62,591 nt of DNA, filler included, from Nitrospinae bacterium RIFCSPLOWO2_12_FULL_45_22 (GCA_001803565.1; 5 parts of 5 records of this genome joined end to end with filler, not necessarily neighbours in it), one strand, 5' to 3'; positions 2,735-19,654 are shown, counted from the whole stretch's first letter. Numbers and translations are program-made. Notes: generated by a model from the letters alone, not told the origin.

Positions 2735-5155
2735 TTAGCAGAATCTCTGCTCGGTCCGCTCGATAATTTGGTCCTGCACCCCTTTAGGCAGATCAACAAA
2801 ATATGCGCTGTAGCCCGCTACCCGTACTACTAAGTCGGCATACCGCTCCGGGTTTTTTTTGGCCTCCAGCAGGGTAGCACGGTCTATGACATTGAATTGG
2901 ATATGGTGGTGTCCCAGATCCGCCCAGGTTCTTAGATAAGTAGCAAATAGCTCTTTGTTCTCTCCTTCCAGGTATTGGGGCAAGAATTTCTGGTTCAGGA
3001 GGTGATTGTGACTCCTCAAGGGATCAACCTTCGAAGTAGACTTTAGAACCGCGGTAGGGCCCTTCTTGTCCCGGCCAATTACAGGCGACAAAGTACCATC
3101 GTTAAACATATCGTGGTCTTTCCGGCCATCAGGTGTCGCCCCAGTCAGGCCACTATAGGCATAGTAGGCCGCACCACCGCTACCATCTTCCAGGAAGTGA
3201 TAGCCATAGAGATTCTTAAAGCGCTGGATCGCTTTAGCGGTTCTTTCCTGTACCTCCCGGGCTATTAGGTCCACATAGTCGTCATCATTACCGAATTTAG
3301 GGGCCTTATTGAGGAAGATTTGGCGTAAGTCCTCTCTCCCTTCCCAATTGCTCTTAAGGGCCTCTAGAAGCTCGGCCATAGTTACCTGTTTCTCTTCGAA
3401 GACCAGTTTTTTCATAGCAGCCAGAGAATCAGCCACAGTAATCTGGCCTATAGGCTGGACAATAGTCTTGGCAAAATAGCGCCATTTACGGCAATCCTGA
3501 CCCTTCTCTATACAACCATCCAGCAGGGCCGAGAGGAGGGGCCTGGGCAGGTGTTCTTCATACAAGGCATCGGCAATATTATATATAACCGCCAGTTTTC
3601 CCATGAAGAAGCGTACCTGGGCCAGATATGCCTCTAGCACATCTTCTATAGAAGAGAAACCGAGAGGGTCCGGGGTAGCAGGGCCGAGTTGCTCACCCGT
3701 AAACTTATCAATACCCTCATTTAGAGCCAGCTCTAAACACTTGGGCAGGACAAATATCCCCCCTACGGCCCGATAGGTAATGTTCTTTCCCGGTATGGTC
3801 CAGCGCATACATACCTCGATAGCATAATCCCGGACATCCTCAATGGGCAAACCTAGAGCGAGAAACATAGGTATCATATAGGCATCGTTATAGAAAGCCG
3901 GATAGCCCACACCAGTCCGGAGCAAATCTATTGCGCTGTATACCAGTTCTTTGGGTATCTTGCTATGGTACCGCATAGCCACCATAGGCACCTGCAAGCG
4001 GATATTTTTGGAGGCATCCAGGGCAATATAGGTCATCTCATTGGTAGCATCATCCCCTTCCCGGGTGACCCCGCCCAGGGTAATGGTTTGGGCCGCCGGT
4101 ATACCGCCAGCCTGGAAGGAGCCGGCTAAAGGTGGCCTGAGCTGACCCGACTCATTCATCTTGAGCCATAAGAATTCTACCAGCTCCTGGGCCTCTTCGC
4201 GGGTGATCCGGCCAGCATCCTGATCCATTTTATAAAAGGGATACATAATCTGGTCAAATCTTGCGCCTAAGCCATTATTCTGCAGTTCGATCTCGCGTGT
4301 TATCGAGGTAATGAACCAGAAGAATTGCAGGGCTTCATATAAGCCCCGGGGAGGGTTCTCTGGTACCCAGTCACATACATCCGCCACCCTTTGCAGCTCT
4401 TGTTTTCGCTCAAAGCTGATCTCCGTTTGGGCCAGTTCCCGGGCCTTTTGGGCATAGCGGTTGGCAAAGTTGGTGGCGGCCCTAAGGGAAATCAGGCAAG
4501 CCTCGAGAAAGTTCTTTTGTTCCAGGTATTCGCGGGCTGAGGTACCATTTACATTCAAGGTCTTCAAGCGATTTTCCGCCTCTTTTATTACCCCTTTCAG
4601 GCCGACCTGGAAGAGTTTCTCAAAATTGGCAGCGCCAGAATCAGCACCATGGAGCCACATAAAATGTCCTTTATATGACCAGTAAGGTTTTACATCCTCG
4701 GGCAAGAGATTATATTCCATCCCCTGGACGGATTTACCTTGCCAGTATTTATGTATCTGATGCAGTTCTTTCCTCTCTTCCTCGTTCAGCAGCTCCTTAT
4801 ATTCTTTATCAATAGCCTTATCCAGCCAGCGCCAGTAGAGCTCCGGATAGGTAGTCAGCGAGTCGGGTGTACTGGCAAAGTTGCCTACTATACGCTCTTC
4901 ATCGCCTATATAGATAGTCATATTCTCCAGGATACTGGCTAGGGCCTTTGCCCGCCGTAAGACCATAGGTTCCCCTTCAGTCTCTTTATAGACCTGGGTT
5001 ACCAGGCGGGCCCGTTCCAGGCAGATCTTTACCCCGGGCCGATATGGTGACCGGCCGGCTTCTTTCTCATAACCCCGGCCCAATGCCCGGAAGCTCTTTA
5101 CCTGATAATGCATCTTGTCCCTGAGTTTTTCTACTACCGTACTCACTATCCCCAC
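2735..5155 (-). CDS. Glycyl radical enzyme resembling fumarate-adding (aryl/alkylsuccinate synthase-like) enzymes
   Basis: 806 aa. Gly loop RVAGYSAYF, Cys loop EVCMR (single Cys, no following Glu), YRAVGG, ATPDGR and HIQFNV. Confidence 0.85.
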   Translation of the reverse strand: MGIVSTVVEKLRDKMHYQVKSFRALGRGYEKEAGRSPYRPGVKICLERARLVTQVYKETEGEPMVLRRAKALASILENMTIYIGDEERIVGNFASTPDSLTTYPELYWRWLDKAIDKEYKELLNEEERKELHQIHKYWQGKSVQGMEYNLLPEDVKPYWSYKGHFMWLHGADSGAANFEKLFQVGLKGVIKEAENRLKTLNVNGTSAREYLEQKNFLEACLISLRAATNFANRYAQKARELAQTEISFERKQELQRVADVCDWVPENPPRGLYEALQFFWFITSITREIELQNNGLGARFDQIMYPFYKMDQDAGRITREEAQELVEFLWLKMNESGQLRPPLAGSFQAGGIPAAQTITLGGVTREGDDATNEMTYIALDASKNIRLQVPMVAMRYHSKIPKELVYSAIDLLRTGVGYPAFYNDAYMIPMFLALGLPIEDVRDYAIEVCMRWTIPGKNITYRAVGGIFVLPKCLELALNEGIDKFTGEQLGPATPDPLGFSSIEDVLEAYLAQVRFFMGKLAVIYNIADALYEEHLPRPLLSALLDGCIEKGQDCRKWRYFAKTIVQPIGQITVADSLAAMKKLVFEEKQVTMAELLEALKSNWEGREDLRQIFLNKAPKFGNDDDYVDLIAREVQERTAKAIQRFKNLYGYHFLEDGSGGAAYYAYSGLTGATPDGRKDHDMFNDGTLSPVIGRDKKGPTAVLKSTSKVDPLRSHNHLLNQKFLPQYLEGENKELFATYLRTWADLGHHHIQFNVIDRATLLEAKKNPERYADLVVRVAGYSAYFVDLPKGVQDQIIERTEQRFC

Positions 5156-5187
5156 CCCCTTTAATCTTCTTAAGATTTCCTGCTACC

Positions 5188-6465
5188 TTATCTTTTGCGC
5201 TTGCGGCGTGCTTCTATCATCTCGAATAGGGCCTGGAGCCTAATATCTATCTGGGCCTCAGAGAAGAATTTCGGGTCAATCATATCCGCTTCTATCACTA
5301 TCCCGGGGATACCGTACTTGCGCTCGATATCATCAATTATATCCAGCTCGCCCAGGTTCCAGACCCGGCAGGTACGGGAGGCATACATGATCAGGCCATC
5401 CAGAGAGTATTGTTCGATCCATTCTGCTAAGGAATGCTGGAAGAACTCCGGGGAGCTGCCCGTAGCCATCCGATAAGAGTACCACTGTTCGATCAGGGTA
5501 TCTACCGGCCTTTCCGGGTCAATATGTTCCGGGTGAGGGAAGAATTCCCAGGGGTATCTTCCGACAATGGGATTAGCGCCGAAAGAGACCAGCTTGCGCA
5601 TAATAGTACCCAGGAAGGTCCAGGGTATCCAACCATCCCAGTATACCCGGAAGCGCTCCTCGGGTGCGATAGCCGAGATCCCCTGCCCTGCCCTCTGTTT
5701 TAATTCATCTAGCAATTGCTGATAATAGTCAATAGACCTCTGTTGACCCATCAGATAAAAAACCGGGGCAATGCTAACCGCATAATCCCATAGCGTCCAC
5801 GGTGAGGGGATCCTTTCAAAGAATTTCCAGCATTCATTCCGGATCATAGCGGCCTTTTTGAGCACGGCCAGGATCTCACTCAAGCGGTCATAATTAAACT
5901 TACGCCCGCAGAACTCTTCTAGCTGCGGGATGACTACTTCGTAGCACTGCCGTTTAGCATAGTTTTCCAGGGGCTTAAGGTCTTCTTCCTTTTGAGGTGG
6001 GGGCAGGTCCAAGGTGATAGCCGGCACTTTTAAACGCCGGAAGAGAGAATCACCGATCTGGGAATGTTCCGGACAAAGGCGTCCACAAAGAATCAAGTCC
6101 GGTATGGGCTGCAATACATCCTCTTTTATAGGGATATTCTTCTCTATGGCATCGATCATACCTAGATGGAGGCGATGATAGGAACAAGTATCAATAATTT
6201 GCCCGCCGGCTTCGGCTGCCTCAAGGATGGGTGGTACGCCTTTACGGCCACCGCAATAAGCTGCATAGCCAGCATAGAAATGGCAGGTTATCCCCATAGC
6301 ATAGGCAAACGGGAATAGGGGACCTATGCTCCAGGCAATCTTTTTTCCTTGGGCCTTGGCTACCCGGATGCTTGCCCAATGTTCATCTACCCACGGGCCC
6401 ATAAGTTTGGTGGTCTCTAACCGATTCAATTTAAACTTTCGTTCTTCAGATTTTTTCTCTTCCAT
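5188..6465 (-). CDS. 2-hydroxyacyl-CoA dehydratase / benzoyl-CoA reductase family subunit (HgdA/BzdO-like), paralog 2
   Basis: Motifs DTCSYHR, RLCPEH, RTCR and EADMID...RLQALFEM. Confidence 0.85.
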   Translation of the reverse strand: MEEKKSEERKFKLNRLETTKLMGPWVDEHWASIRVAKAQGKKIAWSIGPLFPFAYAMGITCHFYAGYAAYCGGRKGVPPILEAAEAGGQIIDTCSYHRLHLGMIDAIEKNIPIKEDVLQPIPDLILCGRLCPEHSQIGDSLFRRLKVPAITLDLPPPQKEEDLKPLENYAKRQCYEVVIPQLEEFCGRKFNYDRLSEILAVLKKAAMIRNECWKFFERIPSPWTLWDYAVSIAPVFYLMGQQRSIDYYQQLLDELKQRAGQGISAIAPEERFRVYWDGWIPWTFLGTIMRKLVSFGANPIVGRYPWEFFPHPEHIDPERPVDTLIEQWYSYRMATGSSPEFFQHSLAEWIEQYSLDGLIMYASRTCRVWNLGELDIIDDIERKYGIPGIVIEADMIDPKFFSEAQIDIRLQALFEMIEARRKRKR

Positions 6466-6510
6466 CGGAGCTCCCTCCTCTTATTCGCTTCGAAAATAGA
6501 AATAAAGAGA

Positions 6511-6942
6511 TCATAACAAATTAAATCGTTTTAGGGCCTCAGCTAATCTACTATCCTGCCGGGAAAGCTCCTTCAAGGCATCCAATAGCCTTCTTAACAT
6601 ACCTTCCTTTTCCATAAACTCAATGGCCTCTCTTCTGGCTTCCCTGATTATGGTCCTTCTGTCCCAATAGGCAAATCCTATAACTGTTACTACTAAGGAA
6701 GTAAATATCCCGGACAAGATATAAAGGAAATGGGTCATCTGGTCGAACCTCTTGTTCATATCTTGACGTAGTTCTGAAATTCTTGTATCCACCTGCTCAA
6801 ATCTCTTGTCTATCTCTCCCACTTTTACCCTTAGTTCAATAAGAAGTTCTCGGTCTTTCTGGGTGAAACCGTCTTCCGCAAATGTGGAGGCACCTGAGAG
6901 GAAAATCAAAAATAATACAGATAGCACCATTAAATGTCTCAT
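6511..6942 (-). CDS. Hypothetical membrane protein (signal peptide, coiled coil, one TM helix)
   Basis: Likely start MRHLMVLSVL at 6942 after a GAGG RBS, then an IDKRFEQVD coiled coil and a hydrophobic helix. Confidence 0.65.
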   Translation of the reverse strand: MRHLMVLSVLFLIFLSGASTFAEDGFTQKDRELLIELRVKVGEIDKRFEQVDTRISELRQDMNKRFDQMTHFLYILSGIFTSLVVTVIGFAYWDRRTIIREARREAIEFMEKEGMLRRLLDALKELSRQDSRLAEALKRFNLL

Positions 6943-7021
6943 AATTTCCTCCCCATCTGAATGACAATCATTGCACCGCAAAGCATGCTGAGGTATAAAG
7001 GGCAGCTCAGCAGGTTTATTT

Positions 7022-7798
7022 CTATTGTTCGGTAGCAATAATAGCAGCACCGAGGGCACCGATGATTTGAGGTTCTGGCGGGATCAAAAGAGTTATACCA
7101 AGTTTTTTCTCCAATGCCCGAACCATTCCCTTACCCTTAGCTACCCCACCGGTCATCACTACCGGTTCTTTCGTGCCTAATTGACCAATCATACCTGTGA
7201 TACGCCGGGCAATAGCTTCATATATCCCGGCCGCTATATCTGCCTTGTCAGAACCCTGGGCCAATAGAGATATTACCTCGGTCTCGGCAAACACGGTACA
7301 CATATTACTTACCTTGGCCTCTGTGTGGGCACGGAAAGATAATTCCCCCATTTCATCGAGGTCAACTTCTAAAGCCCCGGCCATTACCTCCAGGAAGCGT
7401 CCAGTTCCAGCCGCACATTTATCGTTCATAATAAAGTTTACTGGCCGGCCATCTTCATTAACATAGATTACTTTGCTATCCTGACCGCCTATATCAATCA
7501 CCATCCGTACCTGGGGGAAGATGGATTTTGCCCCCCGGCCATGGCAAGTAATTTCTGTAACATGGTTATGAGCAAAACTTACCCGTGCCCGTCCATAGCC
7601 TGTAGAGACAATATAATTAATATCGGCGAGGCCGAGATTAGCAGTTGCTAATACTTCATTAAAAGAGGCTTCGGCCGCCCCTTGATAAGAAGCACCACTC
7701 CTGATTATTTTATAAGCCAGGATATTTCTGTTGCCATTTAATAATACCACTTTGGTACATAAAGAACCTACATCTATGCCCCCTACAATACCCGCCAT
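7022..7798 (-). CDS. ATP-dependent activase (HgdC/BadFG/BcrAD ASKHA family)
   Basis: Motifs GIDVGS, STGYGR, TEITCH, DIGGQDSK, NDKCAAGTGRFL and CTVFAETE. Confidence 0.95.
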   Translation of the reverse strand: MAGIVGGIDVGSLCTKVVLLNGNRNILAYKIIRSGASYQGAAEASFNEVLATANLGLADINYIVSTGYGRARVSFAHNHVTEITCHGRGAKSIFPQVRMVIDIGGQDSKVIYVNEDGRPVNFIMNDKCAAGTGRFLEVMAGALEVDLDEMGELSFRAHTEAKVSNMCTVFAETEVISLLAQGSDKADIAAGIYEAIARRITGMIGQLGTKEPVVMTGGVAKGKGMVRALEKKLGITLLIPPEPQIIGALGAAIIATEQ

Positions 7799-7800
7799 AA

Positions 7801-9081
7801 TTACCTGCGCCTCATCTTCCTCCGGGCTTCTATCATCTCGAATAATGCCTGGAGCCGCATATCTATCTGTGCTTCCGAGAAGAATTTCGGGTCAAGCATA
7901 TCCGCTTCCAGAACTACCCCCGGTATGCCGTGCCTGCGCTCTATCTCATCAATGATGTCTTGCTCTCCCAGGTTCCAGAGCCTACAAGTGCGGGCGGCAT
8001 ACATGATTAAACCATCCAGCGAATATTTATCTACACACTCAGAGATAAACTCCAGGCCAAACTCGGGTGAGCTCCGGGTAGACATCATATGGGTATACCA
8101 TTGTTCGCACAGGGTATCTACTGGCCTTTCTGGGTCAATATATTCCGGGTGAGGAAAGAACTCCCAGGGATATTTACCTACGATGGGATTAGCGCCGAAA
8201 GAGAGGAGCTTCCGGCTGATAGTCCCCAGAAAAGACCAGGGGAGCCACCCATCCCAATAGACCCGGAATTTTTCCTCGGGCGATATAGCAGAGATACCTT
8301 GATCGGCCCGCTGTTGCAGCTCGGCCTTGAGCTTCTCATAATACTCTACCGTGCCGGGCTGCCCCATGAGATAGAATACCGGGGCGATACTGACTCCCCA
8401 GTCCCATAATGTCCAGGGCGAAGGGATCCTCTCAAAGAATTTCCAGCATTCATTCCGTACCAGGGCCGCTTCTTTCAAGGTAGCCAACATCTCACTCAAC
8501 CGGTCATAATTGAACTTACGGCCACAGAATTCTTCTATTTGCGGGATGACTATTTCGTAACATTGGCGTTTGACGTAGTTTTCCAGTATCTTTAAGTCCT
8601 CAGGCTTATGGGGCGGGATCATATCCATCGCAATGACCGGTACCTTTATATGCCGATAGATGGAGTCACTCTGGTGGGAATGTTCCGTACAGAGCCGGGC
8701 AGAGAGGACCAGGTCTGGTTTGGGCAGCATGACCTCTTCCTTGATCGGCAACTGCTTCTCAATAGCGAGAATCACCCCCATATGGAGCCGGTGATAAGAA
8801 CAGGTGTCAACGATTTGACCATCGGCCTCCGCAGCCTCTAACAGGGGAGGCACACCCTTGCGGCCCCCACAATAAGAGGCATAACCTGCGTGGAAATGGC
8901 AAGGCATATCCATGGCATAGGCAAACGGGAACAGGGGGCCCATACTCCAGGCCACTTTCTTACCCTGCTTTTTGGCCTCCCGTAAGCCATCCCAATGGGC
9001 ATCCACTAAAGGTCCTATTGCCTTGGTCGTCTCTAAGCGATTAAGTTTATATTTCCTCTCTTCAGATTTCTTTTCTTCCAT
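7801..9081 (-). CDS. 2-hydroxyacyl-CoA dehydratase / benzoyl-CoA reductase family subunit, paralog 1
   Basis: Same Cys motifs as 5188..6465 and colinear with it along the whole length. Confidence 0.85.
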   Translation of the reverse strand: MEEKKSEERKYKLNRLETTKAIGPLVDAHWDGLREAKKQGKKVAWSMGPLFPFAYAMDMPCHFHAGYASYCGGRKGVPPLLEAAEADGQIVDTCSYHRLHMGVILAIEKQLPIKEEVMLPKPDLVLSARLCTEHSHQSDSIYRHIKVPVIAMDMIPPHKPEDLKILENYVKRQCYEIVIPQIEEFCGRKFNYDRLSEMLATLKEAALVRNECWKFFERIPSPWTLWDWGVSIAPVFYLMGQPGTVEYYEKLKAELQQRADQGISAISPEEKFRVYWDGWLPWSFLGTISRKLLSFGANPIVGKYPWEFFPHPEYIDPERPVDTLCEQWYTHMMSTRSSPEFGLEFISECVDKYSLDGLIMYAARTCRLWNLGEQDIIDEIERRHGIPGVVLEADMLDPKFFSEAQIDMRLQALFEMIEARRKMRRR

Positions 9082-9409: not shown

Positions 9410-9509
9410 NNNNNNNNNNNNNNNNNNNNNNNNNNNNNNNNNNNNNNNNNNNNTTAATTAATTAANNNNNNNNNNNNNNNNNNNNNNNNNNNNNNNNNNN
9501 NNNNNNNNN
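9410..9509. other. Artificial contig linker
   Basis: 100-bp N run containing TTAATTAATTAA (stops in all six frames). Confidence 0.98.
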
Positions 9510-9651
9510 CCTCCTAACTTTTCGTATTCTCAAAACACATGTATTCGCTTCATTCGGTGCAATTGTTCTTGGTATTTCTTTACTTGGTGTTTGATTAGGT
9601 CTCATTATAGGATTCCCAATTCAACCTGTTCTTTTAGGAAGTTTTGTTTTA

Positions 9652-10101
9652 GTGAATGTTGTGTTGTTTTATCTTTTAGCACTAATCCGGAATGGAAATT
9701 TTCATATTCAAGAACCAAAAGACTTTTTGTTTCGGTTTCAAGCCCGCCCAGAGGTTTACTTATATATTAACGGGGAGGGTAGGCATATACCCGATCCTCA
9801 TACTTTATTTCTTCTCGGTTGGTCTTTTAATGATGTAGTTATTTTAGATAAGAAAGAATTTAATGCATTTCAAATTGGAAGACCACTTGAGAGTGTTTTA
9901 AATGCACGCCTAGTTCGCCCTGATGATAGTGAGAACGAGGTCTGGATGATTTTAGAGGGTAGGAAAAGACGTATAGATCCCACGATAATTAATTCGATAA
10001 AAAACTTAAATCCTAAACGAATAATAGATGCTATTCCTCGATCACAAATTGCAGCATGGCAGGAAGACAAACCTTTGGCAGCTATTATCTTTCAGAATTA
10101 G
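9652..10101 (+). CDS. Hypothetical cassette-like gene, 5'-truncated and possibly disrupted
   Basis: Two internal repeats (VYLYINGEGRHIPDP and VWMILEGRKRRIDP). The upstream hydrophobic frame has an in-frame TGA at 9592. An attC-like site follows. Confidence 0.55.
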   Translation: MNVVLFYLLALIRNGNFHIQEPKDFLFRFQARPEVYLYINGEGRHIPDPHTLFLLGWSFNDVVILDKKEFNAFQIGRPLESVLNARLVRPDDSENEVWMILEGRKRRIDPTIINSIKNLNPKRIIDAIPRSQIAAWQEDKPLAAIIFQN

Positions 10102-10103
10102 CT

Positions 10104-10165
10104 GTTTAACAACGGCATAGAGTGCGACGGCAAAAAGCCGCCGCGCATCATGCCGAGCATTAGGC
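10104..10165 (+). mobile_element. Degenerate attC site
   Basis: GTTTAAC-AACGGCATAGAGTGCG...CGCGCATCATGCCGAGC-ATTAGGC. R' has G>A, and the site starts 3 nt after a stop codon. Confidence 0.65.
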
Positions 10166-10303
10166 ATCTGATTAGGCATAAAAACGAGATAATAAAAGGC
10201 AGTTGAGCATCATGCGCCGATAATGGTATGTTATAGCAACATGCCAAATAATAAGAGAAAAAACGGCAAAGCAATTCGATACATTGATTTATTCTGCGGC
10301 ATT

Positions 10304-10650
10304 GGCGGCCTCTTTTTCTTAAACTGAGCCTGCAACCCTATATCCGGCCGTAATAAGCTCTCGGCATCCTTGTGGTCATAAGACCTGGTATTGGCCTCTA
10401 TCCTTTTTTTCGTTAGTGCCATTATTTAACCTCTAGATTCGCTTTGCTCACTACAAGTTTTACCATCGGCTGATACCTATTCTACCCCAGACAATTGCAT
10501 ATTAACCCTTTCGTTTTCAAACCCACGGCCTTCCAGATCTGTGGATGTTCTTTACACAAGGCAATGTCAATATCATCTTTATGCCTTTTTATTGCTTCTA
10601 TGATGGTTCTAAATATCCTGATTCTAAGCTTCTCAGGATATCTCAGCTTT
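10304..10650 (-). pseudogene. Diverged relic copy of the radical SAM 3' end plus mod 5' end
   Basis: Encodes KLRYPEKLRIRIFRTIIEAIKRHKDD...CNCLG then MALTKKRIEANTRSYDHKDAESLLRPDIGLQAQFKKK, matching about 16520-16823. Confidence 0.9.
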
Positions 10651-10880
10651 TTTAATCGTTTAATCCCCAATAAGTTTGATTCTAGAATAGATTTTATGTT
10701 GGAAATCCTGAAGTATTTCTCTATGGGGATAGCAAAGCAGAAGAATAAGTCATTCAGTTATTTTCTTGAAAGACATATTTGTAAAGCCAGCAATTCTCGG
10801 TAAAAAATCTCTTTAAAGCCCTATCTGGCAGGGTTAGAAAACCCCGCTTATCGGTAGTAGGCTATCTTAGAGGAGAATAC

Positions 10881-13800
10881 TTATGTCTCGCATTTTACGG
10901 ATAAAGGAGACATGTGCGAAAGCCTCTCGGCTGATTTACGAACTGCCTCATTCAAATCCGTTGGGTGATAAATGATGGCATAATCCCAAAGCCCAAAACC
11001 ACCCTCATTATTTACTGCCCATACCCATCTTCGGGCAGCAGCTTCTTTTACCTCAGCCAGCGGATCATAACCTTTTACCTCTAAGATAAGGGTACCTACC
11101 TCTTTCCCATCCCACTTGAGGTTAATCAAAAAGTCCGGTATATAATCCCTCTTCTCACCATTATGGAAATAGGGTATAGCAAATCCTAGATTAAAATTAC
11201 GCGCAAAGGAAATCACATGATCATGCTTATCCAGATAGAATTTGGCTATCTGTTCCCATTTTTCCGTATCTGCGATAGCGTAGTTAAGATGACTCCTTTG
11301 GCACTCCACCACTTTTTTGCTAGTCCAGAAGTCTACATCCCCAGTTGAGCCCGGCCCGCGATTTATCTCATAACGGGGTAGTTCAGATGCATCACCTTCC
11401 TTTACATATGGAATTATAGCACCCATAATGGTTTCAACCGCCCAACCATAATAGGGATTGAGGAACAGGTCTCTTAAATCTGTCCCACCCATTGGTTGAA
11501 CCCGGGTTTTAATAAATTGCCTCACAATATTTAAGACCTGAGGAAAAAGCACATGGACAGGTATCTCACACCCGGAGCTACCGGACAATTTATCCGTTAA
11601 AGTGCGAGCCAGCTCAAACTCCAGTTCCTGCAACCTCTTGGTCTTTCTCCATTCTTCGAGGGAAATTTCATCAGTACGCCCAGGCCCAAAAAGGGAGAGC
11701 CGTCCAGTTTCTGTAGCGGATAACCCTTTTACCCTTACCTCGTCAGGTATATTTGCGGGGTCCAATAGCAGGGTCGGGACCCGCGACCAGTCCACCTGAA
11801 TACTGTTTCCTATCTTATAAACATACCCCTCTACCCGGGGGAAGCGGATCTCCAGATGGTCTTTCTCTGGAGAAAGGGCATGAACATGGTAGATTTTTGC
11901 TGGAGGCTGCTTATGTTCTTTAGGATTAGTTTTTAGAGGTATGAGCTCAAAAGGGACGCCATAGACCTTGGCTAATTCTTCAGCCTGAAGGTCATGGTAT
12001 TGGGAGCGTCGAAGGGCCCTTCCCACTACTTGCTCACAAAGAAGCTGTGATTGGAATGGCCGTAAGCCTACGATATGGGTCACAGTATGGGCATCCCACC
12101 CTTCAGCAAGCATGGCAACAGAAACAATGCACCGGACATCCCTGCCCGGGGGAATGGATGGGTCTATCACCCTTTCCCCCAATTCTATAACCTTTCGATT
12201 TACCTTCTCTATCAAGAGAGTATATTCCGGAGGAGGTTTTCCTCCGGGCCATACCGTTTTACCAATGGTATCTAGAATAAAACGCAGGCGGCGGTTCTCA
12301 TCGGTTTTGATGGCGCCGGTTTCCAACTCTTCAATTACTTTAGAATCAATCCTCACAGTATATTCCTGGCCATTTCTATTCAAGAATTCTTCAATAGGCG
12401 GGGCAGTTTCGCTCCCTCCTTCAGCCATCCACTCATAGATAACCCGGGCAAGTTTTGTGTCCCGGCAAACAATAACGAATACCGGCGGTACCGAGGGCCT
12501 TGAACCTTTCTCTGCCTCCTTTTGCCATTCCAGAAAGGTCTCTCGCCATAGCCCTGCCAATTGAGCAATGGGTGCCTGGGCCCATTTAAGCACTGCCTCA
12601 GGTTTTATTTGGCCCCGCCTGCCACCTTTTTCAGTCCTAGTGAGTTTTTCTTCTATAATCCATCTCCAGACATTAAAATAGGCAGGGATGGGTCTGCCGG
12701 TGGTATCTTCTATAGGCAATTGTGGGATCTTTACTAGACCGGATTCTATGGCATCAATCAATCCGAAGTCCGATACTACCCAGGGAAAAGGCCGCCCCGG
12801 TTCATTGCCGGTATTGTTCAGATAGAAAGGTGTTGCCGATAAATCAACGCAGAAGTTGATCCCCCTTATCCGGTTTATCTTGTCCAGTCCATCAATCCAG
12901 ACAGTGGCTTCTTTCCTTTCTACCTCGGAAAGCTCGTCCTCTTCTTCTATTTCGGGGGTATTGTCTAATTGCCTGATCCGGTAAGCATGATGTGCCTCAT
13001 CGTTAAAAACCAGGATGTTTCCTTTCCCTTTTACTGACCACAATACCTTTTCTACTAAGGCGGTATCTGACTCAAAGTATTTTGTCTCGATGGTCTCTAC
13101 CTTTTTCCCGTCTATATCTCGGGTAACCCGTACCTTTTTCTCTACACCCCGCTTTACTACCCGGGATGAATCCTTCCCAACGGTATTCATCTCCTGAGGT
13201 TCCAGAACATGCCAGTTGGTAATAATTACCTGACCTTTCCTTAAGTCGCTCATCAGGTGAGGAAGAACTAAATCAAAGGTTCGGTAAATACTGGTCTCAC
13301 CCTTATTGGGGTCGAGTTCCTGAAGTCTGTCCCGTATGGTTATGTTAGGGCATATAATCAGTACTGTATCAGAAAAGCGGGCATCAGAACGATTGGCTAC
13401 CTTGTTTAAGATACTCCAGGCTGCCAGCATCGCCATAACCGTAGTCTTTCCAGTCCCGGTAGCCATCTTGCAGGCATACCGCAGAAACCCAGAATACCCC
13501 TTCTCCCTGGCTTCCTTAGACGGTTCATCCCCCGGTATGGTGATCCCTTGCCGGTAATCGGCCCTAGCCTCGGTTAAAAAGATGATGGTCTCAACCGCTT
13601 CTCGCTGACAGAAAAAGAGCCGTCTTTCCCTCTCCTCTTGACCCCAGTATTTAAGTAATTCATCCGTAACCAAGGTTATCCCAGGGTATCCTGACTCTCT
13701 CCATTCTTTAAGACTTTTGCGGATTTCATTTGCCAGCTCTAAGGGGAATTTGGTCCCAATATCGTCTGCCTGGTCTTTGGTGGTCTGCCTTCCTGGAGGG

Positions 13801-13934
13801 CGGAAGTAATAAAAGGCCTCCCGCTGCCCTTCCATAAGTTTTGGTCGTTCACCCTTTTCTATAAGATAATAGTGACGAGGCTCCTCATAGGCATCATTGA
13901 TTATAGGTTTAATGACTTCATTAAACTGGCTCAT
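10881..13934 (-). CDS. res: Type III restriction enzyme Res subunit (SF2 helicase + PD-(D/E)XK nuclease)
   Basis: Motifs MATGTGKT, NDEAHH, SATP, EGWDA, EQVVGRALRR and C-terminal YIPDF...LEVKG. Confidence 0.9.
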   Translation of the reverse strand: MSQFNEVIKPIINDAYEEPRHYYLIEKGERPKLMEGQREAFYYFRPPGRQTTKDQADDIGTKFPLELANEIRKSLKEWRESGYPGITLVTDELLKYWGQEERERRLFFCQREAVETIIFLTEARADYRQGITIPGDEPSKEAREKGYSGFLRYACKMATGTGKTTVMAMLAAWSILNKVANRSDARFSDTVLIICPNITIRDRLQELDPNKGETSIYRTFDLVLPHLMSDLRKGQVIITNWHVLEPQEMNTVGKDSSRVVKRGVEKKVRVTRDIDGKKVETIETKYFESDTALVEKVLWSVKGKGNILVFNDEAHHAYRIRQLDNTPEIEEEDELSEVERKEATVWIDGLDKINRIRGINFCVDLSATPFYLNNTGNEPGRPFPWVVSDFGLIDAIESGLVKIPQLPIEDTTGRPIPAYFNVWRWIIEEKLTRTEKGGRRGQIKPEAVLKWAQAPIAQLAGLWRETFLEWQKEAEKGSRPSVPPVFVIVCRDTKLARVIYEWMAEGGSETAPPIEEFLNRNGQEYTVRIDSKVIEELETGAIKTDENRRLRFILDTIGKTVWPGGKPPPEYTLLIEKVNRKVIELGERVIDPSIPPGRDVRCIVSVAMLAEGWDAHTVTHIVGLRPFQSQLLCEQVVGRALRRSQYHDLQAEELAKVYGVPFELIPLKTNPKEHKQPPAKIYHVHALSPEKDHLEIRFPRVEGYVYKIGNSIQVDWSRVPTLLLDPANIPDEVRVKGLSATETGRLSLFGPGRTDEISLEEWRKTKRLQELEFELARTLTDKLSGSSGCEIPVHVLFPQVLNIVRQFIKTRVQPMGGTDLRDLFLNPYYGWAVETIMGAIIPYVKEGDASELPRYEINRGPGSTGDVDFWTSKKVVECQRSHLNYAIADTEKWEQIAKFYLDKHDHVISFARNFNLGFAIPYFHNGEKRDYIPDFLINLKWDGKEVGTLILEVKGYDPLAEVKEAAARRWVWAVNNEGGFGLWDYAIIYHPTDLNEAVRKSAERLSHMSPLSVKCET

Positions 13935-16642
13935 CGTTCTATCTCGGCCTCATCAAGGGACTTCACCACCATTAATTCGTTACCCCGGTCGTCAATGACC
14001 TTGACCGCTATCCGGCCATGTTCTCCAGCAACAAATGGCTCGCTTATAGTGCCCGATAAATGCTCCCAAACACTGTCTTCAAACGTACCTTTAAGGGCCT
14101 TTTGTAGACTGTCCCAGGCCCGGGTACGGGGAAAGAATGCCTGAGTTACACAAAAAGCTAGATTATTGTAGTCGCTGTCCAGGAACCAGGCCGGAACATC
14201 ATCTCCCCTGGAATGGTAAACCTCGCAAGTCACCGGATCGAAGACATCCAGGCCTAAAAGCTCCACCTGATATAACTCTGAGCCATCCTTTGCCTTTTTG
14301 TCTGTGCGTGTCAGACGGATCTCCGGGGCACCGGTGACACTGAAGACCTGACTGGAGCGGGTGGTCTTCAAGAGGTCACTCATCTGCAGGTCCATGGTAG
14401 CCTGCACATAGGTGGCCGGGATACCCACAACATCAAGGCAGGAATGAATAAACCTGGTAGCCTTATCCTGGATGGCAAAGCCGATAATATAGAGATGGGA
14501 AAAGCTCTTGGCGTAAGCCTCCCGGGCCGCGGCAAAGACCATCTGCTCCGTCACTGGTCCATGCTCCGGTCCAAAATAAAAGGCGACCGGTTTTTCTTTG
14601 TCATTGGCTACCACTGCCTCAGCATGAATATCCATAGCCCTGGCCGGACGGCGCACATTCTTGAATTCTACGGTCTGATTGCCCGGCAGTCTCAATAGCG
14701 GGGAGTGGCGGAGCACCTCTATCATCCGGTTGATATAATCACCGTATTCAGTCTCACCCTCTGCTACTTTGCCCGGTTCTTTTTCCTCTATCTGGATGGG
14801 TGTAGGTATGGTGGCTTCTACTACAAAGGGACCAGAGACCCTGGTAATGCTCGTAACCACTTCGGGCCGGTCCACCAGCACCTCCTCGTCAGGTGGTTGG
14901 TTCTGGGCGATGGATTTGAGGGTGATGTGGGGCACAATGCCGCCTACTTCCTCTCCCTTCTTATTCTGCTTGCGTTTATAGACAAAGCCACCGGAGGGCC
15001 CTTTAGCCGGGTCCCGCAGTTCATAATAAGCAAAGGTAGCGGTTAAAAGTCGCTGCCGGGCAAGGGCTAAGGGGACCCGGCTGGTATCAATCGTGATCCA
15101 GCGCCTGCCCCACTGCTCAGCCACATAAGCCGTGGTGCCTGAACCACAGGTAGGGTCAAGGATCAGGTCACCAGGGTCAGTAGTCATAAGAAGACAACGG
15201 GAGATTGGTAGCTCTGATGTCTGAACTACGTAATCCTTAATGATCTCCGGACCAGTATCATTCCAGGTAGAAGTTAATTCAACATACGGAAAATCATCAA
15301 AAAACGCTATTGACCGCAAAACGCTTTTACTTTCAGTAACTCGATTACTTTGCACTAATCTGGAAAACCCTTCATCAGAGTGCCGCCAGTGCATTCCCTC
15401 TGGAATAGACCACATTTTGTCGTTGAATTCTCTTTCTTTATTATTGCCAGTTCCTTTCGAATGCATTGGTAAAGTGGAAAAGAAGCGACTTCCCTTTTTC
15501 ACAAGTTCTGGATTTTGTTTCTCTTCATCTGTTAGTGGCCGGCGTGTTCCATTTTGATCTTCGATGTTAGAGAAGATAGATGTATCCAATTCTTGAGGAA
15601 GAAAGAGCCGCCGAAACTTTATCTTTTGCTTTTCTTTAGCATACCAGATGAGGAAATCTGTTGTTTGTGGAAGTCCGTGAGCCTTCTTGGTTCCGCCTGT
15701 AACCTTGAAAGATACCATCCCGCAGAAATTCTCTGCCCCAAATACCTCATCCAACAATTCTCTGACATGATGGACATTTTCATCGCCGATCTGGACAAAG
15801 ATTGAGCCTGAAGGATGAAGCAGTTCTCTGGCAAGCAAAAACCGGTCTCGCAGATAGGTAAGGTAGGAATGGAGTCCCAGCTCCCAGGTATCGCGATAGG
15901 CCTGTACCATCTCTGGCTCCCTGGTCATATGCTCATCATCACCATGCTTCACATCCCGCTTGCGTATGAAGGGCTGGAAATTGGAGCCAAACTTGACCCC
16001 ATAAGGCGGGTCCATATAAATCATCTGCACCTGCCCGCCCAATCCTTCATACTCTAAGAGTGAGTTCATCGCTACCAGAGAGTCACCAAGGATCATCCGA
16101 TTTACCCAGGGGATCTTGTGGACATAGGCCTTTAGGATACGGTCAGTGATGGAGAGATCATGATCAGCAAAAAGTTCCATCTGTCTAGCCTTATCTTTTT
16201 TACGATGCTTCAGGGTCTCAAGAATGGCCTGGGTGGAGAGCCGTTCATGGATAAAAAGTGGCAGGGTGGGCACGTTAAACTCCGTCCGCTCAGCCTTACC
16301 GGCCCAGTTAAGGAAATGGCGGGACATACGTTTCAGGGCATCGGCAGCAGTTTTGATTTGCAACAAAAGTCCTTCCAGTTTTGCAGGGTCATCCTTATGC
16401 CCTGCTAACTTTTCCGTTAGCTCCTCTATCTCCGCAATCAGCGCCTCTACCCTTTCCCGGTCAGCATTTATATCCCAGGAAAGTGATGGATCAATACTGG
16501 AATCATAGCGATAGGTCTTTGGCAATCTCTTTCTCTTAAACTGCGCCTGTAACCCTACATCCGGCCGTAATAAGCTCTCGGCCTCCTTGTGGTCATAAGG
16601 CCTGGTATTGGGTCCTATACTTTTTTTCTTACCCGCTGCCAT
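13931..16642 (-). CDS. mod: Type III Mod subunit, beta-class amino DNA methyltransferase
   Basis: YMDPPY (motif IV) precedes DPTCGSGTT (motif I). ATGA overlap with res. Confidence 0.92.
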   Translation of the reverse strand: MAAGKKKSIGPNTRPYDHKEAESLLRPDVGLQAQFKRKRLPKTYRYDSSIDPSLSWDINADRERVEALIAEIEELTEKLAGHKDDPAKLEGLLLQIKTAADALKRMSRHFLNWAGKAERTEFNVPTLPLFIHERLSTQAILETLKHRKKDKARQMELFADHDLSITDRILKAYVHKIPWVNRMILGDSLVAMNSLLEYEGLGGQVQMIYMDPPYGVKFGSNFQPFIRKRDVKHGDDEHMTREPEMVQAYRDTWELGLHSYLTYLRDRFLLARELLHPSGSIFVQIGDENVHHVRELLDEVFGAENFCGMVSFKVTGGTKKAHGLPQTTDFLIWYAKEKQKIKFRRLFLPQELDTSIFSNIEDQNGTRRPLTDEEKQNPELVKKGSRFFSTLPMHSKGTGNNKEREFNDKMWSIPEGMHWRHSDEGFSRLVQSNRVTESKSVLRSIAFFDDFPYVELTSTWNDTGPEIIKDYVVQTSELPISRCLLMTTDPGDLILDPTCGSGTTAYVAEQWGRRWITIDTSRVPLALARQRLLTATFAYYELRDPAKGPSGGFVYKRKQNKKGEEVGGIVPHITLKSIAQNQPPDEEVLVDRPEVVTSITRVSGPFVVEATIPTPIQIEEKEPGKVAEGETEYGDYINRMIEVLRHSPLLRLPGNQTVEFKNVRRPARAMDIHAEAVVANDKEKPVAFYFGPEHGPVTEQMVFAAAREAYAKSFSHLYIIGFAIQDKATRFIHSCLDVVGIPATYVQATMDLQMSDLLKTTRSSQVFSVTGAPEIRLTRTDKKAKDGSELYQVELLGLDVFDPVTCEVYHSRGDDVPAWFLDSDYNNLAFCVTQAFFPRTRAWDSLQKALKGTFEDSVWEHLSGTISEPFVAGEHGRIAVKVIDDRGNELMVVKSLDEAEIER

Positions 16643-16655
16643 TATTTAACCCTTT

Positions 16656-17834
16656 TTACCTCAGACAGTTACACCTTAGCCCCTTTACGTTCAAACCTAC
16701 GGCCTTCCAGATCGGTGGAGGTTCTTTACACAAGGCAATAGCAATATCATCTTTATGCCTCTTTATTGCTTCTATGATGGTTCTAAATATCTTGATCCTA
16801 AGCCTCTCAGGATATCTCAGCTTTCCTCCTTCCTTTACCAAGCTTCTGTTTATCTTCAATAGGTGAGATTTAGGAAATCGGGAATTGATATGGTTAGCAA
16901 GGCCATTGGAGGGGCGGTATTCACCTATGGTTATCCTTGTAGGCCGCACATACTCAAATATCTTATCCACCAATGTTATGTAGTCCGTTTCCCAGGTAGA
17001 ATAGAATATGACTGGGTCTATCCTGAGACGCACTTCATAACCTGCTTTCTGGGCTTTGGCCGCAGCCGCTAAGCGAGACTCAGGGGAGGGTGTCCTATGT
17101 TCTAGCTGATAAAAAACGGGATCAGTATTTATACTAAAAGAAATAATTGATAACCCTCCATGATCAAGAGAAAGGATATCATCCACGCAATCACTTTTTG
17201 TCAAAAATAACAAGCGGGTATTTGGGGCATATTTGGGCATGAAGGGGATAATCTTTTGGGCAAACCCAGTTATATAATCCACAGCTAGGGGATCACCAAG
17301 CTCACCAAGGTTTAGAACTCTAAGATATTCTGGTATATTGGATTGGTCAAATTTAATAATTTCATCAAACATCTTCTCATAGTTAACAAAATGGGTGGAA
17401 ACCGGCTGGGTTCGGAAGGTTAAATAGAGATAACAATACTCACACCAAAAATTGCAATTATTGTAGGCTGTTAGTTTATAAAATTTTGCGCACCGCCCGA
17501 TCGGGTGTTGAAACTGTTCAATAAAAGGACTCGTTCTATTACGTAATAAAATAATACTTCTCTCAACCAAAAGCTTTTCTATGCCCTGTTTCCCATTAAT
17601 TTCTGGTATTTTATCCAGCCAGATCAAAGGCAACCCAGCATGGTTGGCTATCTGGTTAGCCCTTATTTCATGAGTCATACCCCGGATCGCCCATAATTCC
17701 CTCACAAGTAGCTCTTGTAAATCATTTTGCGGGTATGCTGGGTTTTTTTTACAAATCCTTCGGCTATGCTCAGGACAGGCTTGTTTTATAATGTCTACCC
17801 CTTCTGTCCGACAACCCTTTGGAATTCCCATCAC
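16656..17834 (-). CDS. Spore photoproduct lyase-family radical SAM protein
   Basis: Motifs CNFWCEYCYL, GELGDPLA, FLTKS, SFSIN, EHRTPS..SRL.AA, RIDPVI and LCKE. Confidence 0.85.
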   Translation of the reverse strand: MMGIPKGCRTEGVDIIKQACPEHSRRICKKNPAYPQNDLQELLVRELWAIRGMTHEIRANQIANHAGLPLIWLDKIPEINGKQGIEKLLVERSIILLRNRTSPFIEQFQHPIGRCAKFYKLTAYNNCNFWCEYCYLYLTFRTQPVSTHFVNYEKMFDEIIKFDQSNIPEYLRVLNLGELGDPLAVDYITGFAQKIIPFMPKYAPNTRLLFLTKSDCVDDILSLDHGGLSIISFSINTDPVFYQLEHRTPSPESRLAAAAKAQKAGYEVRLRIDPVIFYSTWETDYITLVDKIFEYVRPTRITIGEYRPSNGLANHINSRFPKSHLLKINRSLVKEGGKLRYPERLRIKIFRTIIEAIKRHKDDIAIALCKEPPPIWKAVGLNVKGLRCNCLR

Positions 17835-18658
17835 AAATATTTCCTGTACTTATTAAAAATATCAGTGACAATCTTTTTGCCCGTTTCATTGTGGGAAGCA
17901 AAGAATAAAAAGTATAAAGGCCCCCCTTTACTATTTCTCATGAGTACTGGGTCGGAGACAAATTTAAATCCCGCAGCTCGTTCCAGCCTTTCTTCCTTGA
18001 ACCATTTTCCAAGTTTAACATTATCCCCTATCTTAATCTGGGAATCAACACCAAAGAGGCCCATTTGCCTCACATATAAAACTCTCTTCCATTCCTCAGT
18101 CCCACAAAATATGTTCATTCGTTCTATCTGATCCGGATCAGCAGAAAGGAGATCCTGATGTAATACATTGCGATTGATATCCATAAGCGGGAAGTTCAAA
18201 AAAATTTCAACCGTTTCTAGCCTGGTTGCGGAGAGGATCGTTTCCCAGTTGAGATGCAAACCGTAAGGATCTAAGATACATAAAGCCCTTTTTCTGCTTC
18301 TATATGCCAGAGATGGGAAGATATTTTTTATCAGAATTTCATTACAATCTCCTTCGTAAACTTGTATGTTGGGATGCCCACCGACTAAGGTTCTAAGAGC
18401 TTCAGTTTTTTCTCTATCAATATCAATGTAGTGATATTCCGTAAAGAGATTTTCAATCTCAAGCGCGTTCAAAGGAGAACCCGGAATAAATTCTCCTGTT
18501 TTTCGTGAAACGTTGATTCCAGCGCCAGCAAAGGCATCTATATATACATACCCTTTACACCACGCTTTCTTTTTCATTATCTTTGTATAGGCATTGGCAT
18601 ATTCCCTAATAATATCCAACTTAATTTCGGACCAAATGCCTACCTTATCCAGTTTCAT
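17831..18658 (-). CDS. tcmP: Three-Cys-motif partner protein (methyltransferase-like fold)
   Basis: Motifs WSEIKLDII..Y, YIDAFAGAG, GSPLNAL, GDCN, LDPYG, YFLFFAS and K....DIF. Confidence 0.85.
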   Translation of the reverse strand: MKLDKVGIWSEIKLDIIREYANAYTKIMKKKAWCKGYVYIDAFAGAGINVSRKTGEFIPGSPLNALEIENLFTEYHYIDIDREKTEALRTLVGGHPNIQVYEGDCNEILIKNIFPSLAYRSRKRALCILDPYGLHLNWETILSATRLETVEIFLNFPLMDINRNVLHQDLLSADPDQIERMNIFCGTEEWKRVLYVRQMGLFGVDSQIKIGDNVKLGKWFKEERLERAAGFKFVSDPVLMRNSKGGPLYFLFFASHNETGKKIVTDIFNKYRKYL

Positions 18659-18900
18659 TGTCTATTCTCTTCTGGCCAACCCGTTAAGGAATATAGGTCA
18701 CTAGACCCTGCATGGATGCAATTGATCTATATAAGGTTTATGACATTTCATCATCGCTTCTCCATGAATAGAATATACCAAAGCACGAGTAAAAATATAT
18801 TATACATTTACTCTGTCAACCTCAAAAGCAGCTTTATTTCATAACAATTCCGATGTCCACTTTCATTTGCCTAACATTTTTCCAATATAGCCTATTAGAG

Positions 18901-19000
18901 NNNNNNNNNNNNNNNNNNNNNNNNNNNNNNNNNNNNNNNNNNNNTTAATTAATTAANNNNNNNNNNNNNNNNNNNNNNNNNNNNNNNNNNNNNNNNNNNN
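18901..19000. other. Artificial contig linker
   Basis: N run with TTAATTAATTAA. Confidence 0.98.
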
Positions 19001-19654
19001 ATCCGCTAAGACTGCCAAATCCGCTAAGACTGCCAAATGTCCTTTTCGGGTTCGTTCGGTTCTCCCTATCCTCACCCGATACCCCGGATCGAGTCCGGGG
19101 CAGGCTCTTGCATCACTCTTCTTTCTTTGTGTCCCTTTCCCATGAAAGGCTTGCTTGAGAGGCTGGAGCTTCCTCTCAATGCCGGGAGTCTTTACCTCTA
19201 CGGTCGGCACTCCTAAAACCTTATACTACACAAGGAGACAGTTGGCTATCCCAAGTTCCCAGAGCCTGCCCCGGACTTGATCCGGGGTTACCCCCATGAA
19301 TACATGCCCTGATCTCAGACCCCGGTGGTGTCCTGTATACATCGCCATATCGCATCCAGAACTGCTGCCTTCCGCACCGCTGCACGGCGTCGGCTTTCAC
19401 TCTCTCCATACTCCGAGAGGCTATCCTAGTGACCACAACTATACATATTTCGGGGCTCAATACAGAGCCTGCACCCTTGATCCATCCGGCTTCGGACTCC
19501 CGTTACCGGGCTTACCCGCAGACTTCTCTACTGACCTGTTGGCTAGACTTTAGTCAGGTGGGACTTGGGCCGTACCGACCCTCACCCACTGGGTAACAAC
19601 ATCGAATTTCATGGGCTACCGCCCAATCCCTTCGACCTGGATTTAACTTGGCAC
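19001..19654 (-). mobile_element. Group II intron, 5' portion (domains I-III, IIB-like), truncated by contig end
   Basis: Begins GTGCCAAG. Contains typical motifs TTGAGCCCCGAAAT, GCCGACGCCGT..GCGGAAGGCAGCA, GGGAACTTGGGA and GGCAGTCTTAG. Inserted 12 nt after the R'' box of an attC. Confidence 0.8.

Follow-up and report, generated by a model that had tools for sequence, protein, structure and literature searches.

A TcmP/SPL-like radical SAM gene pair at the head of a type III-like restriction-modification operon

The locus and its closest described relatives

The defining companion of TcmP, as the name of the TIGR04474 family has it, is a three-Cys-motif protein (DUF5131, PF07505), and the TcmP pair is already known as a catalogued candidate of the PADLOC database (PDC-M41/M30). 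In a 62,591-nt stretch of DNA from the draft genome of Nitrospinae bacterium RIFCSPLOWO2_12_FULL_45_22 (GCA_001803565.1), referred to hereafter as the window, tcmP is followed by a gene for a radical S-adenosylmethionine (SAM) enzyme of the spore photoproduct lyase (SPL) type, and what is new is that such an SPL-type partner heads a type III-like restriction-modification (R-M) operon. Open reading frame calling and family matches place four co-oriented genes on the minus strand, just where an earlier sequence-only reading had put them: tcmP (17831..18658), the SPL-like radical SAM gene (16656..17834), mod (13931..16642) and res (10881..13934). We consider it reasonably probable that the first two genes are a separable, mobile defence or DNA-modification candidate nested at a type III-like R-M operon, so that two modules share one operon. 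The first module would be the translationally coupled tcmP and radical SAM pair, an SPL-type variant of a widespread mobile family, and the second would be mod and res, a self-sufficient R-M system. Since the pair sits where this R-M family repeatedly gathers unrelated defence cargo, the two modules would be co-transcribed and co-transferred, and not biochemically interdependent.

The pairs of TcmP and DUF5131 (TIGR04474/PF07505; PDC-M41, PDC-M30) resemble the locus in their TcmP component, in the tight coupling of the two genes, in their mobile defence-island habit and in lying sometimes directly before a type III-like mod (L090, L091, L093 and L102). Unlike the DUF5131 proteins, which are 240-265 aa long and carry a Cx6Cx2C motif, the partner in the window is a 391-aa PF20903 SPL-type protein with CX3CX2C. 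Profile searches of the kind proposed in the sequence-only reading agree with this assignment, as the tcmP product matches TIGR04474 at 202.4 bits (cut-off 53), which places it in the family, and its partner matches PF20903 SPL and not PF07505. A PADLOC search was productive for the TcmP protein (PDC-M41A, 1.9e-55; PDC-M30A, 8.1e-8) and for Mod (MTase_III) but not for the radical SAM product, which matches no PDC model, so that the A component of PDC-M41/M30 is present and the B component is not found; the sole PADLOC match of the radical SAM product is RTasDUF1848, at 1.3e-3. DUF5131 had rightly been named as the usual TcmP partner. In a 401-genome sample of one phylum, that of the genome of locus L008, 20 of the best 30 TcmP loci were extended, and 17 of the 20 have a DUF5131 partner and one an SPL-like partner. 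The swap of partners is not exotic, as an SPL-like partner occurs in 8 of those best 30 TcmP loci and TcmP-SPL fusions exist. In the RadicalSAM.org account (PMC9477430), DUF5131 is listed as Megacluster-5-2 and SPL as Megacluster-5-3, two radical SAM subgroups of one megacluster. It is this listing that relates the two kinds of partner; the profile-profile comparison of the SPL-like family with DUF5131 gives a probability of 2.7% at E 0.017.

Three further groups of described systems bear on the locus. The radical SAM product shares with SplB (4fhc and mutants) the whole-chain fold, the CX3CX2C-Y motif with a Tyr before and after the third Cys, and a DNA-directed architecture. Unlike SplB, to which it is 22% identical, it has a Glu in the Cys140 column and an invariant C369-x-E371, K213, R254 and Y285 of its own, its gene is coupled, or fused, to that of a protein with a methyltransferase fold, and its context is defence and not sporulation or repair. 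The type III R-M systems (EcoP15I/EcoP1I) likewise have mod followed by res with overlapping stop and start codons, a DPPY motif ahead of the SAM motif, and a Res protein with an N-terminal helicase and a C-terminal PD-(D/E)xK-like nuclease. The NF046055 family, to which this Res belongs, differs from them in occurring in both gene orders and in very often hosting foreign genes, and its match to REase_III is poor. Finally, defence systems nested in other defence systems have been used for 'guilt-by-embedding' by Payne et al. (bioRxiv 10.1101/2024.01.29.577857), a preprint which covers Hma, BREX, DISARM and type I R-M, leaves the type III-like family outside its scope, and has no TcmP or radical SAM named in its main text. 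Embedded systems, such as PrrC in EcoprrI, share with the locus a co-oriented foreign module in or beside an R-M operon (Payne et al.) and a single slot with different cargo in relatives; unlike them, the pair stands upstream of mod, and not between the R-M genes, in 4 of 6 linked systems. A literature search found no account of the function of the TcmP/radical SAM pair, nor any paper on PDC-M41 or BPTD_3080 by name.

A coupled pair of TcmP and SPL-like proteins

The tcmP and radical SAM genes meet at the sequence TTGTGATGG. Two starts are available to the radical SAM gene there, a GTG at 17834, which gives 392 aa and a GTGA overlap with tcmP, and an ATG at 17831, which gives 391 aa and a 1-nt overlap in TGATG. 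The ATG is the more likely, since homologues align from it and the database twin P0005 is 391 aa long. The sequence-only reading had ATGA overlaps at both gene joints; this is correct for mod and res, which overlap in ATGA, and incorrect for tcmP and the radical SAM gene. Coupling of this kind recurs. Relatives of the radical SAM gene were collected at 52 loci on genome contigs, mostly 59-82% identical and one 49% identical, which with the window makes 53 loci. A TcmP gene recognised by hidden Markov model lies directly upstream of the radical SAM gene in 30 of them. Fifty of the loci extend 900 bp or more upstream, and 28 of these have a coupled TcmP gene, no further than 10 nt away. Cluster c4, a variant of 375-394 aa, is TcmP as well (105 bits against 53).

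The two proteins are also found joined. Among 22 long relatives of the radical SAM protein surveyed for fusions, four are full TcmP-SPL fusions (P0280, P0297, P0353 and P0373) and one carries a C-terminal piece of TcmP (P0316). A ParB/Noc-like domain is present at either end in nine, a MAD5 (type I specificity-subunit-like) domain in one, a nucleosidase-like domain in one and an intein in one, and the remaining five have no extra family; the relatives with a fusion other than TcmP or split by an intein are P0271, P0285, P0286, P0295, P0313, P0314, P0333, P0363, P0366, P0371, P0372 and P0393. The TcmP-SPL fusions speak for a joint action of the two proteins, and, as judged from gene order and fusions, TcmP and the radical SAM protein are a real unit. 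Both families are large. An exhaustive search for radical SAM relatives gave 1842 clusters (50% identity) at E <= 0.001, 151 of them at 1e-30 or better, and a TcmP search gave 6827 matches among 7370 candidates. By record title, the radical SAM relatives belong to Thermodesulfobacteriota, Nitrospirota, Planctomycetota, Verrucomicrobia, Chloroflexota and others, a taxonomic scatter that fits horizontal spread and to which errors in the binning of metagenome-assembled genomes could contribute.

Relatives occur in viral collections as well. In IMG/VR, 24 loci hold SPL-like relatives at 25-36% identity; in three of them (L152-L154) two tandem radical SAM genes face a TcmP gene, in L150 a radical SAM gene is followed by TcmP, and in the remaining 20 no TcmP adjoins the SPL-like gene. 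A further observation concerns the assemblies, as 10 of the 52 fetched contigs stop inside the radical SAM gene or at most about 50 bp past it (L011, L026, L029, L040, L042, L044, L046, L048, L049 and L050), much as the contig of the window breaks off 242 bp short of tcmP, which suggests that assemblies break at a conserved, strain-variable element.

The tcmP product (275 aa; model pLDDT 95) has an RlmJ-like class I methyltransferase fold. Both of the methyltransferase-like motifs pointed out in the sequence-only reading, DAFAGAG and LDPYG, are present in the translation and conserved across 40 TcmPs; all of these share D41, G45 and D130, and at least 90% retain G47, the triplet G60-S61-P62, P131 and G133. 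The retention of D41/G45/G47 and of D130-P131-x-G133 implies that the SAM-binding (DAFAGAG) and DP[YFW]G motifs are under selection. The best Foldseek matches are chains of E. coli RlmJ, the 23S rRNA m6A2030 methyltransferase, and a DUF519 protein (E ~2e-7). Given that RlmJ and its DUF519 kin are the best structural relatives of TcmP, an RNA-directed pair has to be considered, in which TcmP would act on rRNA or tRNA in the manner of RlmJ, with host or phage RNA as the target of the radical SAM enzyme. Such a role seems most improbable to us, as the likeness to the RlmJ chains is limited to a TM score of ~0.5 and 13-16% identity, the fold of the partner is that of a DNA enzyme, and the ParB-like and specificity-subunit-like domains fused in relatives bind DNA.

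The radical SAM product matches PF20903 SPL at 103 bits (cut-off 27), but reaches only 129.9 bits against the SPL equivalog TIGR04070, below the cut-off of 400, and on these scores it is not an SPL orthologue; its score against PF04055 (24.7) also lies below the cut-off of 29.5. The predicted model (pLDDT 88.9, with residues 1-30 disordered) matches SPL 4fhc over 350 aligned columns with E 8e-23 and TM 0.72/0.82, that is, in the fold of the whole chain, and the next fold family after SPL (E ~1e-22) is lipoyl synthase at 2.6e-5. Across 48 relatives, the cluster motif CX3CX2C (C127/C131/C134) is invariant together with G177, D181, K213, E245, R254, Y285, G304, C369 and E371, and C369, in an LCKE motif, is the family's own invariant Cys. 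Both Tyr residues that flank the third cluster Cys in SPL are retained.

In SPL, Cys140/141 is the H-atom donor. In a phmmer alignment to the solved SPL structures, Glu178 of the GELGD segment shares its column with the Ser of 4fhg and the Ala of 4fhe, which by their Foldseek titles are the C140S and C140A mutants, so that the H-donor Cys is absent at this column and Glu stands there, as it does in at least 90% of the 48 relatives. The sequence-only reading was thus right that GELGD lacks the SplB Cys, as Glu178 occupies the column, but the idea of a lesion has to be abandoned, since the Glu is conserved and C369 is invariant. An SPL that has lost its catalytic Cys was ruled out as a description of the enzyme, Glu178 sitting in a conserved GE..D motif (G177 and D181 invariant, E178 in at least 90%), which makes it a feature of the family and no loss.

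The substrate of the pair is likely to be DNA, because no other fold match comes near that to SPL and because relatives are fused to DNA-targeting domains (ParB-like, specificity-subunit-like). One proposal for the action of the pair is the reversal of damage, in which the SPL-like enzyme would mend a lesion (photoproduct-like, alkyl or cross-link) and TcmP would help to find it, the two travelling as a mobile passenger of defence islands. The full-length SPL fold with both Tyr beside the cluster would suit such an enzyme, and SplB-like radical SAM genes are described in SOS and repair neighbourhoods by Aravind et al. (PMC3765255). We nevertheless think a repair pair very unlikely, in view of the 130 bits against an SPL equivalog cut-off of 400, of neighbours that are mainly defence, toxin-antitoxin and mobile genes rather than repair genes, and of specificity-subunit-like and ParB-like fusions that point to the targeting of a site and not of a lesion.

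Linkage of the pair to mod and res

Downstream of the radical SAM gene, a spacer of 13 nt (16643..16655, minus strand), of the length given in the sequence-only reading and including AAGGG, leads to mod. The mod product is a type III-like DNA methyltransferase of 903 aa (PF01555 N6_N4_Mtase, 103.7 bits; PADLOC MTase_III, 3.6e-149), in which IYMDPPYG precedes the SAM-binding motif in LDPTCGSGTT. The res product (1017 aa) is a helicase-nuclease restriction subunit of the BPTD_3080 family (NF046055 BPTD_3080 restriction endonuclease, 1033.7 bits, cut-off 800) with a ResIII match (30.1, cut-off 22.5), the motifs ATGTGKT, DEAH and EVK, and a C-terminal TnsA-like nuclease region; PADLOC REase_III models match it barely, at 3.2e-6. 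The two features expected of type III R-M, a Mod that is a DPPY N6/N4 methyltransferase and a helicase-nuclease Res adjoining mod, are thus found, and mod and res are predicted to make up a complete, self-sufficient type III-like R-M system.

The sequence-only reading had named the lack of recurrent linkage of the pair to mod and res as grounds for giving up its proposal, and such linkage does recur. Of 37 loci where the DNA reaches 1.5 kb or more beyond the radical SAM gene, 4 have a gene of the mod family downstream of it (the window, L002, L013 and L014, with one or two genes between the radical SAM gene and mod in L013 and L014); of 26 where it reaches 6 kb or more, 2 have res downstream. 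The version with DUF5131 behaves alike. In 4 of the 20 extended TcmP loci, TcmP-DUF5131 stands beside an intact Mod and Res of the same family, in the order res-tcmP-DUF5131-mod (L090 and L093) or tcmP-DUF5131-mod-...-res (L091 and L102), and L092 is a fifth, degraded case.

The commonest surroundings of the radical SAM gene are different. In 22 of the 53 loci the frame consists of an Eco57I-like methylase (~1160 aa) and a PLD-SNF2 protein (~1110 aa), which bracket a variable cargo of reverse transcriptase, OLD-type ATPase, nSTAND3, Shedu, NACHT, SLFN or the TcmP/radical SAM pair, and which from their gene content look like another R-M-like frame that gathers cargo. Loci with this frame include L017, L019, L022-L027, L031-L033, L036, L047 and L051, and the PLD-SNF2 helicase-nuclease matches the PADLOC entry 'C3a139 HKD+Snf2' at 1.2e-80. 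At some loci, e.g., L004, the pair lies between housekeeping genes. In a separate arrangement (L034:1176-9412), a radical SAM relative that has no TcmP is preceded by a NERD/UvrD-like gene and by genes for a DEAD helicase of 1136 aa and an MZB (DUF1998-type) protein, a layout that we take to resemble DrmA/DrmB of DISARM.

Seen from the R-M side, NF046055 matches above its cut-off occur in 46 of the 401 genomes, at ~50 places, TcmP matches above theirs at ~60 places, and 4 of the ~50 R-M places have a TcmP no more than 5 kb from the NF046055 Res. Forty further R-M loci were fetched for a survey of this family. Genes intervene between mod and res in 18 of the 35 loci that hold both, and the cargo includes Fic, SLFN, DUF4062, AAA_21 with DUF4276, PIN, DUF559, a TIR effector and MNT-HepT. 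The nearest Mod and Res to those of the window, 76% and 86% identical by BLASTP (Res 87% over 842 columns of the tree alignment), belong to L147, where a DUF4276 gene at the start of the contig (L147:145-690, G319:C186) stands directly upstream of mod, in the slot of the pair; DUF4276 is presumably the AriB family of PARIS. On a FastTree phylogeny of 44 Res proteins, from which L140 (split Res) and L148 (no Res) were left out, the six pair-linked systems need 6 changes against a shuffled mean of 5.7, and the nearest relatives of each pair-linked Res lack the pair. The tree led to the rejection of a single ancient four-gene system, and neither the co-occurrence nor the joint inheritance expected of an obligate four-gene system was found. 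From these comparisons of sequences, the linkage of the pair to mod and res is recurrent yet facultative and arose many times.

The four genes are not a fixed system, given mod at 4 of 37 radical SAM loci, the pair at 4 of ~50 R-M loci and linked systems scattered over the Res tree. The sequence-only reading proposed that TcmP methylates a base and that the radical SAM enzyme modifies it further, in concert with Mod and Res, and a sequential pathway of this kind may or may not exist. In the integrated four-component system of that reading, the pair would install or edit a second, oxygen-independent mark, acting jointly with Mod methylation and recognised by Res, and several features favour it: the operon is tight, with overlaps of 1-4 nt and the 13-nt spacer, the order of tcmP, partner and mod is kept in six intact systems with two different radical SAM partners, the window holds a relic of an older radical SAM-mod junction (see below), and the 4 adjacencies compare with ~0.02 expected at random by our own estimate (~60 TcmP places, genomes of ~3.5 Mb), an expectation that is too low because defence genes cluster anyway. 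The distribution speaks otherwise, as mod is absent from 33 of the 37 informative radical SAM loci, the pair is missing from ~46 of the ~50 R-M loci, the linked systems form a polyphyletic set on the Res tree and the closest Mod and Res hold other cargo in the slot. We regard such integration as unlikely.

The view of a separable pair nested at an R-M operon has difficulties of its own. In 23 of the 53 loci the radical SAM gene occurs without TcmP in the available DNA, so that 'pair' does not describe the whole radical SAM family, and the candidate role of the pair in defence is argued from genomic context. No other single type of cargo is more frequent in the R-M sample than TcmP pairs (4 of 44), and these stand directly before mod in all six intact linked systems (the window, L002, L090, L091, L093 and L102), with res on either side, a constancy that random insertion does not predict. 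Several unlinked R-M loci lie on short contigs, by which independent gains may be overcounted, and the relic could mean that the adjacency of radical SAM gene and mod is selected.

The relic itself is a second, diverged copy of the radical SAM-3'/mod-5' junction, found by tblastn and DNA alignment at 10290..10664 (minus strand), directly downstream of res. Its radical SAM part (10488-10664) corresponds to residues 333-391 and is 80% identical, and its Mod part (10303-10410) corresponds to residues 6-41 and is 78% identical; over ~350 bp it aligns with the live junction at a mean column identity of 82%, with a spacer 46 nt longer. Diverged direct repeats of the junction thus lie on both sides of the mod-res cassette, and the relic implies that this radical SAM gene has been followed by two or more mod alleles. 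From their sequence, the direct repeats are possibly the trace of cassette exchange. The identities between L002 and the window (74-76% for the pair, 49% for Mod and 40% for Res) also fit an exchange of R-M cassettes behind a stable pair. One may go further and suppose that the pair makes a new oxygen-independent base modification, that before mod it forms part of a three-enzyme modification arm, and that the radical SAM-3'/mod-5' junction is a crossover site at which mod-res specificities are swapped; we think this combination distinctly unlikely.

Contig context and biological meaning

The window is a concatenation of draft-genome contigs, with four linkers of the form N...TTAATTAATTAA...N at 9410-9509, 18901-19000, around 40840 and around 50284, and genes on either side of a linker are not neighbours because the linkers join separate contigs. 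The operon fills a contig of its own (G000:C16, 9391 bp, window 9510-18900) between the first two of these artificial joints; the contig comes from a draft genome of 321 contigs that is 85% complete, and the assignment of the operon to this genome depends on binning. Upstream of tcmP 242 bp of the contig remain, and in them a promoter-like site, TTGACA-16-TATTTT (18792..18819, minus strand), lies ~135 nt before the tcmP start. It agrees with the consensus at 10 of 12 positions but is weak evidence of a promoter, and the 18 promoter-like sites of the contig are no excess over a shuffle mean of 16.8. A terminator scan of the contig gave a site count no higher than in shuffles, and an Rfam scan of it gave zero matches.

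Elsewhere in the window, the start of the next contig (19001-19300) holds a short tandem repeat, in which ggcagtcttagcggatt occurs twice, and an inverted repeat that is long and imperfect (~19075-19110 against 19260-19295). Another contig encodes, at 2735-9081 on the minus strand, a PFL-like glycyl-radical enzyme (806 aa), two HGD-D dehydratase-type genes and a BcrAD/BadFG-type ATPase; these are genes of anaerobe metabolism, and they fit an oxygen-free lifestyle for a host that uses radical SAM enzymes.

From the folds, motifs, coupling, fusions and distribution of loci observed, a substrate, a chemistry and a role in defence may be proposed for the pair. The radical SAM enzyme would bind DNA as SPL does, flipping out its target, and would cleave SAM reductively at the [4Fe-4S] cluster held by CX3CX2C. 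The resulting 5'-deoxyadenosyl radical would take an H atom from a base, for which a pyrimidine or a base modified beforehand is the most plausible candidate, and E178, K213, E245, R254, Y285, C369 and E371 would finish the reaction in a way unlike photoproduct repair. TcmP, with its fold of an RlmJ-like N6-adenine methyltransferase, would supply nucleic-acid binding or base flipping, and perhaps methyl transfer. Taken together, the evidence favours a radical reaction on DNA in which the methyltransferase-fold partner provides the guidance.

The survey of R-M loci shows the type III-like R-M family to be a frequent host of nested defence genes. The locus offers a compact test bed, with four genes on one strand and a complete R-M system as an internal control. 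If the pair does use radical chemistry to write or erase a mark on DNA, this would amount to a new type of DNA modification, and one that needs no oxygen.

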